Shown: positions 25,930 through 34,377 of the stretch, one piece after another
Layout of the letters: each line of letters begins with the position of its first letter
How positions within the stretch are numbered: the first letter of the stretch is position 1
Assembly (NCBI GenBank): GCA_037443065.1
Contig: JBBIPB010000004.1
Location: forward strand, 1-47,810
Source: Acidobacteriota bacterium
Lineage (GTDB): Bacteria; Acidobacteriota; Thermoanaerobaculia; UBA5066
Length of the DNA: 47,810 nt
Direction: 5' to 3'
Made by a program: the position numbers and the translations under genes
The notes under the pieces: generated by a model
Told to the model about the DNA's origin: nothing
The model's database searches: none
Seen by the model: the letters and a program-made list of their open reading frames with translations, nothing else

Positions 25930-27764
25930 ATGCCCGTCTCCGCTCTTCTCGCGCTCGCTCTCGCCGTCTCTCCGGGAGCACCGGACGTGCCGGGGATGGA
26001 ACGGATCGTCGGGACGGCCGTTCCCTTCTACCTGCTCCACGGCGGGCTCCACTCCACGGAGACCGGAAGCCCCGAGATGCTCATGGAGCTCGCCTACCGG
26101 CTCGACGTGTCGAATGCGCCGCACGTCGTCGAGATCCGCGAGAAGCTCGTCGTCCTGATCAACCCGGTCGCCGAACCGGACGGGCGGGACCGCGATGTGG
26201 ACTGGTTCTACCGTTTCCTCAAAGGGAAAACCGATTACGACCGGCTCCCCCCTCTCTCTCCGCCCTACTGGGGCCATTACGTGAGGCATGACAACAACCG
26301 GGACGGCATTCAGCGCAAGCTCGCCTTGACGCGCGCCACGCAGGACGCCTTTCTCGCCTGGCATCCCGCCGTGGTCCACGACCTGCACGAGTCGATTCCG
26401 CTCCTGACGATCTGGACCGGCACCGGTCCCTTCAACGCGAATGTCGACCCGATCACCGCCGTCGAGATCCAGGCCTTCGCGCTGAACGAGGTGACGGCAC
26501 TCACCGCCTTCGGGATGCCGGGGGTCTGGACGTGGGGCTTCACCGAGGGGTGGTCGCAGTTCTACGCCGACTCCGTCGCGACGAACCACAACGCGATCGG
26601 GCGCGGCTACGAGACCTTCGGCAACGCGACGGCGGAAACGGTCGAGCGCTGGATCGACCCGGAACGAAACAAGTTCGCCGGCAGGCCGGTCACGGAAACC
26701 GACTGGTACCGCTCGCTCCCGGCACCGAAGCGTCCGTTGCGGAAGCGGCGTTTTCCTCGGGTGGCGCGAGCTACCCGCCCGGCTCGTGGATTCTCCCGGC
26801 GCAGAACGGGCTCGCCGGAGCTCTTGGCGAGGTCGCGAAGGAGCTCGGTCTCGACTTCGTCTCCTCGCCGTCCCTCCCCGACGGGAAACGGCACTCGCTC
26901 GATCTCCCCCGCCTCGGCGTCCTCCAGACATGGGCCGACACGCAGTCTCCCGGCTGGGTCCGGATGCTCCTCGACGAGGAGCGGATTCCTTACGCCCTCG
27001 TCATGGACGAGGACGTCCGCGCCGGAAAGCTGAAGGCCCTCTTCGACGTCCTCCTCGTGCCGCACACGCATCTCGACCTGAAGGGGCTCGTCTCTGGATT
27101 CGACCCGAAGTTCTCGCCCCTTCTCTATACCCGGACCCCCGACTTCCCCTCGCACGGCACCCCCACATCCTCGCCCGACATCACGGGGGGCCTGACCTGG
27201 AAGGGGATCGGAAACATCGAAGAGTTCGTCCGGGCGGGAGGCCTTCTCGTCACCCTCGGAGGCGCCTCGACGCTCCCCCTCGACGGCGGGATCGCCCGGG
27301 ACGTCCGGCGGGCACGCGTGAAGGACCTCGACACCCCCGGGAGCCATCTCCGGGCCCGTTTTTCGCGTCCGGATCATCCGCTCGGCTGGGGTTACCGGGA
27401 GACGACGGTCGTCTTCCGGGAAAAGCTCCCCGTCTACGATGTGAGAAGGTCCGACCGCGGGCGGATCCTGCTTCACTACGGGACGAAGCCCCTCCAGGAC
27501 CCCGCCTTCGAAGGCGACGACGAGCCGAAGGACGACGGGGGGGCGAAGGAAAAGAAACCCGAAGACCCGCCGCTCGTCGTGAGCGGCGGGATCAAGGGGG
27601 AAAAGGACCTCGTCGGCAAGCCGGCGATCCTCGAGATCCCGACGGGCCGGGGGCGGGTCCTCGCGTTCGACTTCGACCCGATCCACCGGTACCAGACCCC
27701 GGCCGCCTTCCGCCTCGTCTGGAACGCCCTCCTGAACTGGAACCACCTGCCGGCGGTTCCCTGA
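25930..27764 (+). pseudogene. M14 zinc carboxypeptidase family protein, internally deleted and frameshifted
   Basis: ORF 25930 has a signal peptide, HxxE (GLHSTE), NPDG-like EPDG, HDNNRD and HDLHE. The coding signal switches frame near 26730 into ORF 26532..27764 (GWVRMLLD, FDVLLVP, FVRAGGLLV, HPLGWGY, FRLVWNALLNW). Confidence 0.75.
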
Positions 27765-27817: not shown

Positions 27818-30421
27818 GTGCCCGCCGCCATGCGCTACGCCTCCCTCCGCCCCCGGTTCGAGCCGTTCCTCCTCTCGGTGGAGCGTCCGGGGCGCTATCT
27901 CGGCCTCGAGCGGAACGTGACACGGAAGGAGCTCGCGACCCGCGCCGTCACCGTCTGCATCGCCTTCCCCGACACCTACGAGATCGGGATGAGCCACACG
28001 GGGACGAAGATCCTCTACGAGATCGTGAACCGGCGGGAGACGTGGGCCTGCGAGCGGACGTACGCCCCGTGGGTCGACTTCGAGGCCGTGATGCGGCGGG
28101 AGAGGATTCCCCTCTTCACGGCCGAGTCGTTCGCCCCCGTCCGCGACTTCGACGTCCTCGGCATCTCGCTCCAGAGCGAGCTGAACTACACGAACGTCCC
28201 GAATCTCCTCGACCTCTCGGGAATTCCGGTCCTCGCGTCGGACCGGGAGGACGGCGACCCACTCGTCGTCGGCGGGGGGCCGTGCGTCGCGAATCCCGAG
28301 CCGGTGGCCGATTTCTTCGACCTCTTCCTGATCGGAGACGGCGAGGAGGCCTTCCCGAGCCTTCTCGACGAGGTGGAGCGGACGAAGGGCCTCCCGCGCC
28401 GGGAGCGCCTCCTCCGTTTCGCCGCGATCCCGGGGATCTACGTCCCCTCCTACTACGACGTCGAATACGACGGCGACCGGGTCGTCTCGTACCGTCCGAA
28501 CGCTCCCGGCGTCCCGGAGCGCGCCGCGCGCGTCTGGGTCGAGAAGCTCTCGGCGGAGGTCTACGCCGCGAAGCCGATGGTCCCCTCCGTCGAGATCGTC
28601 CAGGACCGGCTCGGCCTCGAGATCATGCGGGGCTGCACGCAGGGGTGCCGCTTCTGCCAGGCCGGCTACTGGTACCGCCCCGTCCGCGAGCTGGACCCGG
28701 CCGACGTGGCTCGCGCCACGAAGGCGTTCCTCGACGAGGCGGGGTGGAGCGAGGTCGGGCTCCTCTCGCTCTCGTCGGCCGACTATTCCCAGATCGAGCC
28801 GCTCGTCGCCTGCCTCGCACCGGAGCTCGCGAAGACCAAGGTGTCGATCTCGCTCCCGTCGCTCCGGGCCGAAGCGTTCTCGGTTGCGCTTGCGGATGCC
28901 GTCTCGGAGGTGAGGAAGTCGGGCTTCACCTTCGCCCCCGAGACCGGCTCCGATCGTCTCCGGCGCGTGATCAACAAGACCTTCACGAACGCCGACATGG
29001 TGCAGGCCGCCGACGTCGCCTTCGGGCGCGGGTGGGACCTGATCAAGGTCTACACGATGATCGGACTCCCGACGGAGAGCGACGCGGACCTCGACGCGCT
29101 CCTGACCCTCGTCCGGGAGATCCTCGGTCAGGGGCGGAAGCACGGGATCCGCCCCACCGTCCACGTCTCGATCGGCTCCTTCGTCCCGAAGAGCTTCACG
29201 CCGTTCCAGTGGTCGCCGTTCGACGGCGTCGAGAGGCTGGAGAGGAAGCTCGCCTTTCTGAAGGAGAGGTTCCGGACGGTCAAGGGGGCGAAGCTGAAGT
29301 GGCACGCGCCGAAGGAGGCCGAGATCGAGGCGCTCCTCTCGCTCGGTGACCGCCGGATGTCGAAGGCTCTCCTCGAGGTCTGGAGGCGGGGCGGCCGGTT
29401 CGATGGCTGGTCCGAACATTTCTCGTGGGAGAGATGGAACGAGGCTCTCGAAGCTGCCGGGATCCCGAAGGAGCGTCACCTCCGCCAGAAGGATCTCAAG
29501 GAAACCCTACCGTGGGACGTCGTCGACGCCTCCATCCGGAAGCCTTTCCTCGTCGTCGAGTGGAAGAAATCACTCCAGGAAGGCGAGACGGAAGACTGCA
29601 AGTGGGGGCACTGCTACGCCTGCGGCGTCCCCGGCGACGGCGAGGATACCGTCCTCGCAGCTCCGTTGCCCGCGAGCTTCTCGTTCGATTCGACGTCTTT
29701 ACTACCTAGCGCTCCGCCGGCCGGTGTCAAGGGTCCGGGACCGCAAAGCGGCGCGCAAGGCGCGCCCTTGACACCGGCCGCCGGAGCGACAGATTCGCTT
29801 CTATCGGCGGCTGCACCTGCAGCCGCCGCATATAGGAAAAAACCCCTACCAGACCTTCCTTCTCTGTCGTCGCGCCGAAAAATCGGGGATGGCCGTGCGG
29901 CGCCCGTACCCGCGACCGCCCGGACGTACCGCATCTCGTTCGAGAAGGTCGGGGACGCGCGGTATCTCTCGCACCGGAACGTCATGGACCTCCTCGAGCG
30001 CGCCTTCCGGGCCGCGCGCGTTCCCGTCCGCTACACAGAGGGGTACAACCCGCACATCCGGATGTCGATGGGGCCGGCGCTTCCGCTCGGGCAGGAGTCG
30101 AGACACGAGCTTTTCGATGTCGACACTCTCGACGTCCTCACGGACGAGCACCTCGCCGCCCTGAATGCCCGCTTGCCCGAAGGCGTCCGGGTCACCGGCT
30201 GGGCCGAGCTTCCAAAGGGTGCCCTCTCGCTCGGCAAGGCGGCGACCGAGGCCGTCTACCGCTTCGTCCTCCCGGACGGCGAGACCCGCGTCGAGCGGCT
30301 CCGGATCGCCGGCGAGGGCGCGACGACGCCGAAGAGATTCCTCGAGTCGACCTACGGCCTCGCCCCCGAGGACCAGCACGGCATCCGGGTCGTTCGGGAA
30401 GAGACCGTCCTGATCGCCTAG
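27818..30421 (+). CDS. TIGR03960-type B12-binding radical SAM fused to TIGR03936 (DUF2344) domain
   Basis: VERPGRYLGLERN, AFPDTYEIGMSH, RGCTQGCRFCQAG, FAPETGSDRLR, FVPKSFTPFQW, C-terminal YLSHRN...YTEGYNPH...GPALPLG. Start could be ATG 27830. Confidence 0.9.
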   Translation: MPAAMRYASLRPRFEPFLLSVERPGRYLGLERNVTRKELATRAVTVCIAFPDTYEIGMSHTGTKILYEIVNRRETWACERTYAPWVDFEAVMRRERIPLFTAESFAPVRDFDVLGISLQSELNYTNVPNLLDLSGIPVLASDREDGDPLVVGGGPCVANPEPVADFFDLFLIGDGEEAFPSLLDEVERTKGLPRRERLLRFAAIPGIYVPSYYDVEYDGDRVVSYRPNAPGVPERAARVWVEKLSAEVYAAKPMVPSVEIVQDRLGLEIMRGCTQGCRFCQAGYWYRPVRELDPADVARATKAFLDEAGWSEVGLLSLSSADYSQIEPLVACLAPELAKTKVSISLPSLRAEAFSVALADAVSEVRKSGFTFAPETGSDRLRRVINKTFTNADMVQAADVAFGRGWDLIKVYTMIGLPTESDADLDALLTLVREILGQGRKHGIRPTVHVSIGSFVPKSFTPFQWSPFDGVERLERKLAFLKERFRTVKGAKLKWHAPKEAEIEALLSLGDRRMSKALLEVWRRGGRFDGWSEHFSWERWNEALEAAGIPKERHLRQKDLKETLPWDVVDASIRKPFLVVEWKKSLQEGETEDCKWGHCYACGVPGDGEDTVLAAPLPASFSFDSTSLLPSAPPAGVKGPGPQSGAQGAPLTPAAGATDSLLSAAAPAAAAYRKKPLPDLPSLSSRRKIGDGRAAPVPATARTYRISFEKVGDARYLSHRNVMDLLERAFRAARVPVRYTEGYNPHIRMSMGPALPLGQESRHELFDVDTLDVLTDEHLAALNARLPEGVRVTGWAELPKGALSLGKAATEAVYRFVLPDGETRVERLRIAGEGATTPKRFLESTYGLAPEDQHGIRVVREETVLIA
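29710..29788. repeat. 79-bp palindromic element within a coding linker
   Basis: 24-bp inverted repeats cgctccgccggccggtgtcaaggg / cccttgacaccggccgccggagcg (1 mismatch), enclosing hairpins ccgc-aaa-gcgg and cgcgc-aag-gcgcg. Confidence 0.85.
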
Positions 30422-31608: not shown

Positions 31609-32004
31609 TCACAGAACGCGGAAGAACTCGTTCTTCCCGAGACTCCGATCGAACGTCGCGGTATCCGAGCATCCCGCCGAACGGTTCCGGACGCCGATCA
31701 GACAGTCGGAGAAGTCTCCCCGCCCCTCCCGAAACTGAGCGAGCGCCTGCCGGACCAGCTCCCGGTCCTCAAGGACGAGCCTCGGCGTCGCGAGCATCCT
31801 GTCGAGCACCGTGACGAGCGCCTCCTTCCCGAAGCCGTAGGCGCTTCGGAGCACCCAGGTGATCTCGCAGAGAACGATGACGCTGACGAAGGCCCGCTCC
31901 CCTTCCGCGACGATCGTCGTCACGAGCCGGTCGACCTTCCGGGCCTGGGCCGCGTCGTCCTGCGTCAGGTAGCGGATCAGGACGTTCGTGTCGAGCCCCT
32001 TCAT
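31609..32004 (-). CDS. vapC: VapC-family PIN-domain toxin
   Basis: LDTNVLIRYL, E-x-x-WVL, DFSDCLI, TFD. Confidence 0.9.
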   Translation of the reverse strand: MKGLDTNVLIRYLTQDDAAQARKVDRLVTTIVAEGERAFVSVIVLCEITWVLRSAYGFGKEALVTVLDRMLATPRLVLEDRELVRQALAQFREGRGDFSDCLIGVRNRSAGCSDTATFDRSLGKNEFFRVL

Positions 32005-32270
32005 CGCCGGCCCTTCACCGAAGGCCGCCTCCGACCGACGAGGTGCCGCGCAATGGCCGCATCCATCTCCGCGAGCCCCACGGGGGCTCTTCCCTCCCGC
32101 CTCAGCATTCCCTTGAGGTCAGTCAGGTCCGAGACCCCCGGCTGCAGGACGATCCGCCCCGCCTCGTCGGTCACGAAGTCGATGAGGTCGCCGGCCTTCA
32201 CCTTCAGGTACTCCCGGACCGGCTTCGGAACCGTGATCTGGCCTTTCGACGTGACGGTGGCGGTTGGCAT
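32001..32270 (-). CDS. vapB: AbrB/MazE/SpoVT-family antitoxin (VapB)
   Basis: TATVTSKGQITVPKPVREYL...GDLIDF; ATGA overlap with vapC. Confidence 0.9.
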   Translation of the reverse strand: MPTATVTSKGQITVPKPVREYLKVKAGDLIDFVTDEAGRIVLQPGVSDLTDLKGMLRREGRAPVGLAEMDAAIARHLVGRRRPSVKGRR

Positions 32271-32376: not shown

Positions 32377-34251
32377 TCACTTCCCCGTCGCCGGCGTGAG
32401 GGTCGGGAGCATCGTCGGCGGCGCGGGTGTCGCCGTGCGCGCGGCGACGGGAAGCTCCACGGGGGGCGCCGACGGGGTGTAGGCCGGGAGCGGGATCCGC
32501 GCACCCCCGGCGTAGACCGGGTGGCGTCCCTTTTCCTTGTACCACTGGGCCAGCGTCGCGCTCTGGTGCATCTCCTCGACGATCTTCCGCCACCCGGCTC
32601 CCGTGTTGTAGGCGCAGAAGGAGATCTCGCCGAGCTGCGTGCCGTACGGAATGATGCACATCTCCGTCCGCCGGAAGTCGTAGTTGAAGAGGTCCTGAAA
32701 CCACATTCCCGCGACGAGAAGGACGCGCCACGGATGCCGGCCCGACTTCGAGATCCCCATCGACTTCCCCGTGTGGCCGTCGAGGACCTTGAGCGTCTCG
32801 AGGAGACCGAGGTTCTCCGGCACGCCGTCCGGGCGGATGTTCCGGGCAACGGCGAGAGCCGTCTGGAGAATCGTCAGGAACCTTTCCCGCGCCGAGTCGG
32901 TGATGGCGGTCAGGTCTCGCAGGAGCCGGTCGGCGTCGAGGACCTGCGTCACGGGGATCGCCTGCCCCGTCTCGGGCCGGACGAGGACCATCGTCGCGAT
33001 GCCGCAGTTCGGGTGGCAGCCGCACTTGAGCGAGCCCCAGTCGGCCTCGAGCCCTCCGAGGAGGTCGCGAAGGTCGCTGAAGGGGCCCGAGGCCGAAAGG
33101 GGGAACCAGTCGCGCATCGGCTCGCCCACCCCGGCCTGGTTCTTCACGTCGTGGGCGAGGTGGGAGAGGGTGTAGCGCTGCTTCTTCCGGGTCTCGTCGT
33201 CGATCTCCTCGTCCCGCCCCGTGAAGGAGACCGGCTGGAAGGAGAGGGCGTTGATCTTGTCGACGTTCTTGACGGCGAACCGGATGATCTCGCCCACCTG
33301 GTCGTCGTTCACGCCGTTGACGATGGTGATGACCAGGGTCGCGTCGATCCCGGCCGCCTTGAGCGTGTCGAGGGCGGCCAGCTTCACGTCGTAGAGGTTC
33401 GAGACGCCCCGGTGGTCGTTGTGCTCGTTCCCGATACCGTCGAACTGGAGGTACGCGAGGCGGAGGCCCGCCTCGGCCGCGGCCTTCGCGAAGCCGGGCT
33501 CCTGGGCGAACCGGACGCCGTTCGTCGCGCACTGGACCGAGAAGTACCCCAGCTCGCGCGCGTACCGGATCGCCGGAAGGAAATGCGGGGACAGCGTCGG
33601 CTCGCCGCCGGAGAACTGGACGGACATCTGCCGGCGCGGCTTGATGGAGGCCGCGTTGTCCAGGATCTCCTTGATGTCCTCCCACGTCAGCTCGTGGACG
33701 TATCCCACCTGGTTCGCGTCCATGAAGCAGGGGTTGCACATCATGTTGCAGCGGTTCGTCAGGTCGACGGTGAGGACGGCCCCGCGGCCGTGGCGAATCG
33801 ACGACGAGCCGTGGTCGTGCAGGGTGTCCTTCGCGATCTTCACGTCGCGGCCGAAGAAGTTCTCCTCCAGCCGGGCGAAGAAGGCGGCGTCGGTCGACAT
33901 CAGGTCCTCGAACGTGCCGTGCTTCGGGCACGTCTTGACCATCCAGATCTCGTTTCCCTTCTGGACGATGTCGGCGGGGATCTCGCCGGGTCGCCCGTCG
34001 ACGAGGTCCCGAAGCTCGCGCTTTCCGCGGAGGATGTCGTCGCGGACTTCCTTCGTGCATGTGGGACAGAGGGAGTCGGTCCGCCGGGGAAAGCCGAGGG
34101 GGGGCTTCGTCCGCTCCCAGCTCTTCGGAAGCGGTTCCGGCGACCACGCCGGCTGGAACGAGCGGGCCGGTACACGCCGGTTCACCCACTGGAACCCGTT
34201 CCACGCCGCGTTTGCCGCCGTCCGGACCGCCCGATAGACCGTTTTCCTCAT
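32377..34251 (-). CDS. tes: MJ0619-family radical SAM; tetraether lipid synthase (Tes/GDGT-MAS) homolog
   Basis: SLCPTC...KTCPKHG rubredoxin-like N-terminus, DLTNRCNMMCNPCF, QFSGGEPT, YLQFDG, FQPVSFTGR, CHPNCG, FQDLFNYDFRR...CIIPY...ISFCAYN; AGGAG SD before ATG 34251. Confidence 0.8.
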   Translation of the reverse strand: MRKTVYRAVRTAANAAWNGFQWVNRRVPARSFQPAWSPEPLPKSWERTKPPLGFPRRTDSLCPTCTKEVRDDILRGKRELRDLVDGRPGEIPADIVQKGNEIWMVKTCPKHGTFEDLMSTDAAFFARLEENFFGRDVKIAKDTLHDHGSSSIRHGRGAVLTVDLTNRCNMMCNPCFMDANQVGYVHELTWEDIKEILDNAASIKPRRQMSVQFSGGEPTLSPHFLPAIRYARELGYFSVQCATNGVRFAQEPGFAKAAAEAGLRLAYLQFDGIGNEHNDHRGVSNLYDVKLAALDTLKAAGIDATLVITIVNGVNDDQVGEIIRFAVKNVDKINALSFQPVSFTGRDEEIDDETRKKQRYTLSHLAHDVKNQAGVGEPMRDWFPLSASGPFSDLRDLLGGLEADWGSLKCGCHPNCGIATMVLVRPETGQAIPVTQVLDADRLLRDLTAITDSARERFLTILQTALAVARNIRPDGVPENLGLLETLKVLDGHTGKSMGISKSGRHPWRVLLVAGMWFQDLFNYDFRRTEMCIIPYGTQLGEISFCAYNTGAGWRKIVEEMHQSATLAQWYKEKGRHPVYAGGARIPLPAYTPSAPPVELPVAARTATPAPPTMLPTLTPATGK

Positions 34252-34377
34252 GCCCCCACTCCTGAAATCTCTCCGAGAAGCTCTTCCCAAAAGCGCCTTT
34301 TCTGTCCGTCGAACGGCTGCGGGAAGACGCTGACATTAGCATGGGCGACGCGTGGTTCCTTCGCCGGACTGCGGATT

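Follow-up and report, generated by a model that had tools for sequence, protein, structure and literature searches.

A clade of acidobacterial Tes-like radical SAM proteins without the N-terminal cluster motif as candidate iso-diabolic acid synthases

Introduction

The brGDGTs (branched glycerol dialkyl glycerol tetraethers) serve as widely used proxies for past land temperature and soil pH, and we know of no tail-joining enzyme from the Acidobacteriota, their main suspected source. Among the nearest known systems is the archaeal GDGT-MAS/Tes of Methanocaldococcus jannaschii (Mj; MJ0619), which couples two membrane-lipid tails to each other. Here we analyse a 47,810-nucleotide stretch of the genome of an uncultured member of the Acidobacteriota (contig JBBIPB010000004.1 of assembly GCA_037443065.1; hereafter the window) and one gene in it, at 32377-34251 on the minus strand, which encodes P0001, a 624-residue Tes-like radical S-adenosylmethionine (SAM) protein. 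We find that P0001 belongs to a clade, class B, near-core in those groups in which cultured representatives produce iso-diabolic acid (iso-DA) without the enzyme Mss, and we consider this clade, at slightly better than even odds, the leading candidate for the acidobacterial iso-DA synthase.

Passages of PMC9433317 place the N-terminal [4Fe-4S] cluster (N-cluster) of GDGT-MAS on its surface, assign the chemistry to the radical SAM and C-terminal clusters, describe the role of the other cofactors as unclear, and report that the enzyme binds bacterial phospholipids. Bacterial Tes homologues have already been put forward as brGDGT enzymes in sections of Zeng et al. (PMC8941075), Chen et al. (10.1101/2022.04.07.487437) and Halamka et al. 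(PMC10087280), and the available parts of PMC11868695, PMC13274423, PMC13459092 and PMC12042123 report no test of such a homologue. A literature search found neither the loss of the N-cluster nor the class split described below; geochemistry papers in Organic Geochemistry and Geochimica et Cosmochimica Acta may cover the topic.

Results

P0001 retains the GDGT-MAS fold and catalytic ligands

A sequence-only reading of the window had proposed P0001 as a Tes/GDGT-MAS homologue, and profile, sequence and structure comparisons all bear this out. The top NCBIfam model is Tes NF045702 (336.3 bits, profile positions 2-483 of 486), Pfam reports Radical_SAM and the HMPTM zinc ribbon, and the closest solved structure by sequence is GDGT-MAS 7TOL (E 2e-70). 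The second NCBIfam match is TrsS NF045646, at 214 bits over profile positions 13-296 of 441, where the cut-off of 490 is not reached. An AlphaFold2 model of residues 1-584, calculated from a 117-row alignment with the 40-residue tail excluded (mean predicted local distance difference test, pLDDT, 93.4; predicted TM-score 0.92), matches 7TOM with Z 45.0 and a root mean square deviation of 2.5 Å over 482 of 498 residues. The four-domain fold is retained, the helical domains align with each other, and Foldseek concurs (target TM-score 0.89); the runner-up protein, MoaA, reaches only Z 20.8.

All the motifs that had been listed from the sequence (rubredoxin-like, CxxxCxxC, CHPNCG and the C-terminal block, which reads D520...R528...C532...F545-C546-A-Y-N549) are found in the translation, and P0001 keeps the rubredoxin, radical SAM and C-terminal cluster (C-cluster) residues. 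Conservation was assessed in 458 full-length proteins sharing at least 50% identity with P0001, picked by identity and not by motif and drawn mostly from top-hit lists, so that they are not independent; the residue numbering of the 7TOL chain alignment is offset by 20. Eleven contacts to SAM or 5'-deoxyadenosine named in passages of PMC9433317 are identical in P0001 (F176, G216, Y267, D271, R281, V307, T309, Q339, S342, T344 and R346), the match at R281 requiring a one-residue alignment shift. Residues C410, C412, H413, C416, M516, W517, C532, Y536 and C546 are each present in 458/458. From this invariance C416, C532 and C546 are inferred to be the C-cluster ligands, the passages of PMC9433317 naming only Met439 and Tyr459. 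Two class-specific features had been overlooked in the sequence-only reading: the invariant C410, and 22 extra residues in the loop of the rubredoxin site, where the spacing is 42 in 440 of the 456 measurable relatives versus 20 in Mj.

The N-terminal cluster motif is replaced

The absence of the archaeal N-terminal Cys motif is confirmed by alignment: the CxxxCxxCxxH ligands (Mj C73/C77/C80/His) fall on T143/H147/S150/R153 of P0001, and 0/458 relatives carry the motif. A His-rich stretch, LHDHG...RHG, had been noted in its place. The first part of that observation stands, with H145 kept in 454/458 and H147 in 458/458; the second does not, since position 154, the His of RHG, is H, Y, F or W in 216, 211, 28 and 3 of the 458 (Y in 105 of the 117 nearest relatives), and H154 is therefore not a ligand. 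Direct coupling analysis (mean-field; 659 sequences, effective number about 112), applied to possible contacts of the HxHG segment with the CxC loop, gave a noisy signal. N-cluster Cys residues are also missing in two proteins unrelated to class B, P0195 and the one at L165:3048-4586, one of which clusters with Parcubacteria proteins and scores above the Tes cut-off, which suggests that the N-cluster was lost repeatedly among Tes-like proteins.

Bacterial Tes-like proteins fall into two classes

When NF045702 was run against 401 Acidobacteriota genomes, 245 matched, 43 of them above the cut-off and most of the remainder near 320-350 bits. CxxxCxxCxxH is present in all of the 30 best-scoring loci, here called class A. 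The loci retrieved with P0001 have HxHG instead and are called class B; the scores of named proteins of this class are 311-329 bits. Acidobacteriota matches to NF045702 at about 1e-65 were set aside, those checked being TrsS-like outgroup proteins and not Tes.

A tree of 49 rows, made after 9 long-branch or degenerate rows had been dropped from 58, recovers class B as monophyletic (100/100), and the quick 58-row tree concurs. Sister to class B (100/100) is the intermediate P0123, and the two sit within class-A bacterial Tes proteins that bear the N-cluster motif and exceed the cut-off; TrsS-like proteins form a distant outgroup. The placement of P0001 inside the Tes radiation, which the sequence-only reading had called for checking, thus holds in trees whose sole named archaeal row is a Thorarchaeota protein, MJ0619 and MA1486 not being among the rows. 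In three genomes of one genus (L114, L115 and L117) a class-A gene is separated from a class-B gene by about 5-6 kb, with a gene of ~1,060 codons for a BNR/sortilin-repeat protein between them.

Cluster membership places Luteitalea pratensis WP_237050610.1 and Chloracidobacterium thermophilum WP_014100521.1 in class B, together with proteins of Edaphobacter, Tunturibacter and Silvibacterium. Probable members, assigned by length or E-value only, are Acid_2410 of Solibacter and the homologue in E. aggregans; Solibacter Acid_5929 is probably class A by length and identity. T. roseus AFL89353.1 was rejected as the orthologue of subdivision (SD) 1, as it is a degenerate offshoot that lacks the C-cluster Cys. 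P0127 and its relatives are likewise class-B offshoots: they keep the rubredoxin and radical SAM motifs, but with C-cluster Cys changed to Ser and the Tyr to Val their chemistry must be different or absent.

Class B follows the producers of iso-diabolic acid

Distribution was counted with P0001 as query, family and class names being taken from named cluster members; the unpublished genomes G023, G402 and G417 are included in the counts and carry no conclusion. Class B was found in 190/201 genomes of Terriglobia, including 137/151 of Acidobacteriaceae and 29/32 of the family nearest named Bryobacteraceae, and in 68/71 of Blastocatellia. In Vicinamibacteria it occurs in 36/71, four families there being mostly without it (2/36). 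In Holophagae, which do not produce iso-DA, it was not found (0/99). Within the Thermoanaerobaculia the order of P0001 has it in all 49/49 other sampled genomes, and the remaining members of the class have it in 0/151, with three weak matches of which the one checked has the class-A motif. Class B is a clade-wide trait of Acidobacteriota and not special to the source organism.

Table S21 of PMC13159169 gives 14 acidobacterial iso-DA producers, in SD1, SD3, SD4 and SD6, none with mss, and lists non-producers in SD8, SD10 and SD23 as well as Solibacter. The same table reports Tes in just 3/14 producers under a filter of at least 30% identity. Because class B is about 30-33% identical to archaeal Tes and so straddles that limit, the 30% limit itself probably accounts for this negative. 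Class B includes the table's L. pratensis entry and also a protein of C. thermophilum, a strain for which the table gives no Tes homologue.

Gene, locus and lipid genes

The gene is real and intact: the open reading frame starts at ATG and has no internal stops, and full-length relatives exist at 92-96% identity, the nearest named ones from Thermoanaerobaculia bins. It is the sole Tes-like gene detected in the source assembly, which is 75% complete. A promoter scan for the gene returned 0 sites, and a GC hairpin 3' of the stop is marginal (z -2.2, without a U tract). The N-terminal extension, which had been described as amphipathic, is predicted to be helical (pLDDT 90-96) and lies outside the range aligned with 7TOM, 53-577; its amphipathicity is modest, the hydrophobic moment of 0.63 being matched by 4.5% of shuffles, and no transmembrane segment was found in it. 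The modelled helix likely makes membrane or lipid contact.

Table 1. Features of the P0001 gene and its surroundings in the window
Feature	Position	Strand	Basis
Class-B Tes-like radical SAM gene (P0001, 624 aa)	32377..34251	-	Open reading frame, family profiles, predicted fold
Shine-Dalgarno-like AGGAG, 8-12 nt 5' of ATG	34259..34263	-	Read from sequence
N-terminal extension helix, residues 2-26, basic, modestly amphipathic	34174..34248	-	Predicted model and hydrophobic-moment test
Rubredoxin-like site C62/C65/C108/H111 with 22-residue helical insertion	33919..34068	-	Matches Mj C9/C12/C33/H36 (passages of PMC9433317); PF23545
Former [4Fe-4S]N segment, HxHG (H145, H147), Cys-free	33790..33825	-	Alignment and conservation
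Radical SAM CxxxCxxC, C168/C172/C175	33727..33750	-	Translation, Pfam
CxCHxxC loop (C412-H-P-N-C416-G); C416 inferred C-cluster ligand, C410 class-B specific	33004..33024	-	Alignment and conservation
C-terminal cluster block: M516 (= labile Met439), C532, Y536 (= Tyr459), C546	32605..32706	-	Alignment and conservation
Pro/Ala/Thr-rich variable tail, residues 585-624, excluded from fold prediction	32380..32499	-	Sequence
AbrB-type antitoxin (32001-32270), ATGA overlap with PIN/VapC gene (31609-32004)	31609-32270	-	Directly downstream of Tes-like gene
Fused TIGR03960/TIGR03936 B12 radical SAM protein, function unassigned	27818-30421	+	NCBIfam
M14 peptidase-like gene split in overlapping frames (25930-27033 and 26532-27764)	25930-27764	+	Open reading frame list, Pfam

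The neighbours of the P0001 gene are a ThiO-like oxidase, an EcsC-like gene, a cyclophilin, an AmgK-like kinase, the vapBC pair and a hydrolase. The AbrB/VapC pair occurs in 0/80 related loci and is therefore probably a recent insertion. The two overlapping frames of the M14 peptidase-like gene suggest a frameshift or an assembly error. The fused TIGR03960/TIGR03936 protein is also present in 13/80 related loci and has a weaker second copy on contig C2.

A conserved lipid operon around class B was considered and rejected, as the neighbours vary by lineage. Some class-B loci adjoin lipid genes, namely a B12 radical SAM family (7/83 loci), a PlsC-type acyltransferase, an AMP-binding enzyme, lpxB/lpxD and PEMT. 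In one Gemmatimonadales bin (L054:4741-12743) class B sits in a lipid-like cluster with an AMP-binding enzyme, a B12 radical SAM protein, a second radical SAM protein and an acyltransferase. Of the 18 radical SAM matches in the source genome 13 were scanned against NCBIfam, among them HpnH, HpnJ and B12 enzymes left unassigned. Two adjoining genes of the last kind (L123 and L130; contig C10, 21510-25048) could, judging from sequence, be lipid methylases or ring synthases.

Discussion

The distribution, the fold and the retained ligands together support P0001 as a tail-coupling enzyme for membrane-spanning lipids built on iso-DA, a reading that rests on analogy to GDGT-MAS and to which we give a probability of roughly 0.55. 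In the source organism these lipids would probably be ester-linked, because ger was not found. The sequence-only reading had named ger among the genes to look for, and the Ger domain PF09989 (Ger/PlsA) was detected neither in the source genome, at 75% completeness, nor in two other genomes of its genus that are nearly complete, which makes a tetraether product doubtful.

By analogy to GDGT-MAS, P0001 would link two iso-branched lipid tails through their terminal carbons. A SAM-derived 5'-deoxyadenosyl radical would take a hydrogen from one tail end, the C-terminal [4Fe-4S] cluster would hold the resulting tail radical as a C-S adduct, and a second SAM would yield the second radical, upon which the C-C bond would close. 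The surface N-cluster would be dispensed with, electrons would arrive by way of the rubredoxin site or from an external carrier, and the N-terminal helix would dock the protein on the membrane. An extended form of this proposal takes class B as the Mss-independent iso-DA synthase of aerobic Acidobacteriota, a Tes offshoot minus the surface [4Fe-4S]N, perhaps for oxygen tolerance and maybe with a new His2/Cys2 metal site (H145, H147, C410 and C412), with the published negative produced by the 30% filter; we hold it tentatively, at a little under an even chance.

Several observations weigh against P0001 as the iso-DA tail coupler. P0001 fails the curated NF045702 cut-off (336 vs 450 bits), and because this and the second defining feature tested, the N-cluster motif, are both lacking, it falls outside the curated Tes family, though it most plausibly works like Tes. 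Its neighbours in the window are housekeeping genes, without lipid genes. It also branches apart from the proteins of cultured producers, which share a strongly supported sub-branch and to which it is about 59-61% identical. Degenerate offshoots without the C-cluster Cys, such as AFL89353.1, indicate that function can drift in the clade. The His2/Cys2 idea in particular is weakened, because H147 remains in 91/100 degenerate relatives in which C410/C412 are for the most part gone. The lipid records add further difficulties. The producer lineages are kin, so that the correlation of class B with iso-DA amounts to only one or two independent contrasts. Our literature search returned no lipid data for the order of P0001, outside which we take T. 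aquaticum to lie, and no bacterial Tes homologue with demonstrated activity. Table S21 of PMC13159169 lists Tes homologues, of unstated class, in several non-producers. Solibacter makes brGDGTs with iso-DA undetectable, according to passages of PMC10087280, despite the probable class-B Acid_2410. A passage of PMC11868695 calls the activity of bacterial Tes homologues unconfirmed, and the heterologous archaeal Tes described in part of PMC12042123 was run anaerobically, while most class-B hosts are aerobes.

The alternative that survives best, though we think it unlikely, is that P0001 acts on lipid tails with other chemistry, such as desaturation, ring closure, sulfur insertion or outer-membrane acyl coupling, and that iso-DA comes from an unrelated enzyme. 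Class-B changes near the active site are what such a shift might leave (W517 in place of His, the extra C410, the lost N-cluster motif); moreover, Pyrinomonadaceae hold two class-B paralogues, one of which adjoins lpxB/lpxD, and class A and class B coexist side by side in some Terriglobia. Against it, the C-cluster ligands and the equivalents of Met439 and Tyr459 are invariant, and class B follows the iso-DA producers that lack mss.

That P0001 is a true tetraether synthase, turning iso-C15 diethers directly into brGDGTs, seems improbable to us. Halamka et al. propose, in a passage of PMC10087280, a tetraether role for one or both Tes homologues of Solibacter, the fold matches GDGT-MAS, and the source genome is just 75% complete. 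Yet PF09989 is present in only 4/61 genomes of the order and 0/3 of the genus, and no ElbD-type protein was found among the NAD_binding_4 matches examined: those of one same-genus genome have that domain alone and not the four-domain ElbD layout.

A non-lipid role, in which P0001 modifies a cofactor or a peptide, is less probable still. It is prompted by the database names on relatives ('pterin dimethyltransferase' or TrsS), by the TrsS score and by the lack of lipid-gene neighbours in the window; the TrsS match, however, spans residues 90-374 alone and is far under its cut-off, the pterin-methylase annotation is uncorroborated for MJ0619 in passages of PMC9433317, the fold match covers the entire lipid-binding C-terminal domain, and TrsS-like proteins are distant in the tree. 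Modification of hopanoids, suggested by shc, hpnH and hpnJ in the source genome, was rejected as very improbable, the distribution of class B being uncoupled from shc (class B 17/17 and shc 0/17 in Pyrinomonadaceae, 19/19 and 1/9 in the family of P0001, 0/29 and 13/15 in family f9).

Dividing the bacterial 'Tes homologues' into classes leaves one candidate, a single near-core gene, which occurs in the producer lineages and was not found in the non-producer ones. As P0001 is an ordinary member of class B, its value lies in the clade, from which proteins of named cultured strains are available for testing. If P0001 indeed couples iso-DA tails, the class-B gene would mark producers of brGDGT precursors in genomes and would add an uncultured order of Thermoanaerobaculia to them; if class B is active without the N-cluster, it would show how few cofactors suffice for radical C(sp3)-C(sp3) coupling.

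Comparison with known systems

P0001 is 30-33% identical to GDGT-MAS/Tes of M. jannaschii (MJ0619; 7TOL, 7TOM), with which it shares the fold, the 3Cys-1His rubredoxin site, the radical SAM motif, the SAM contacts, the C-cluster Cys residues with the labile Met, and the equivalent of Tyr459. It differs in having HxHG for the [4Fe-4S]N motif, an N-terminal extension of ~50 residues, the rubredoxin insertion, the CxCHxxC loop and W for H after the Met, and its host would offer acyl chains in place of phytanyl ones. Bacterial class-A Tes, the parent group of class B, is 32-40% identical and has the same catalytic ligands; unlike P0001 it keeps CxxxCxxCxxH and passes the NF045702 cut-off, and it is rarer (43/401 Acidobacteriota genomes). 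The reaction proposed for P0001 is that of Mss from Thermoanaerobacter ethanolicus and Thermotoga maritima, a radical SAM maker of (iso-)diabolic acid compared here by description only; in the relevant parts of PMC13159169 Mss does not turn up as a Tes homologue, no Tes homology was seen in Mss hosts, and Mss was not found in acidobacterial producers. The published class-B homologues (L. pratensis and C. thermophilum, with Solibacter Acid_2410 and E. aggregans tentatively included) belong to the clade of P0001, carry HxHG and keep all the ligands at ~60% identity, while forming a separate sub-branch of proteins about 70-90 residues longer than P0001.
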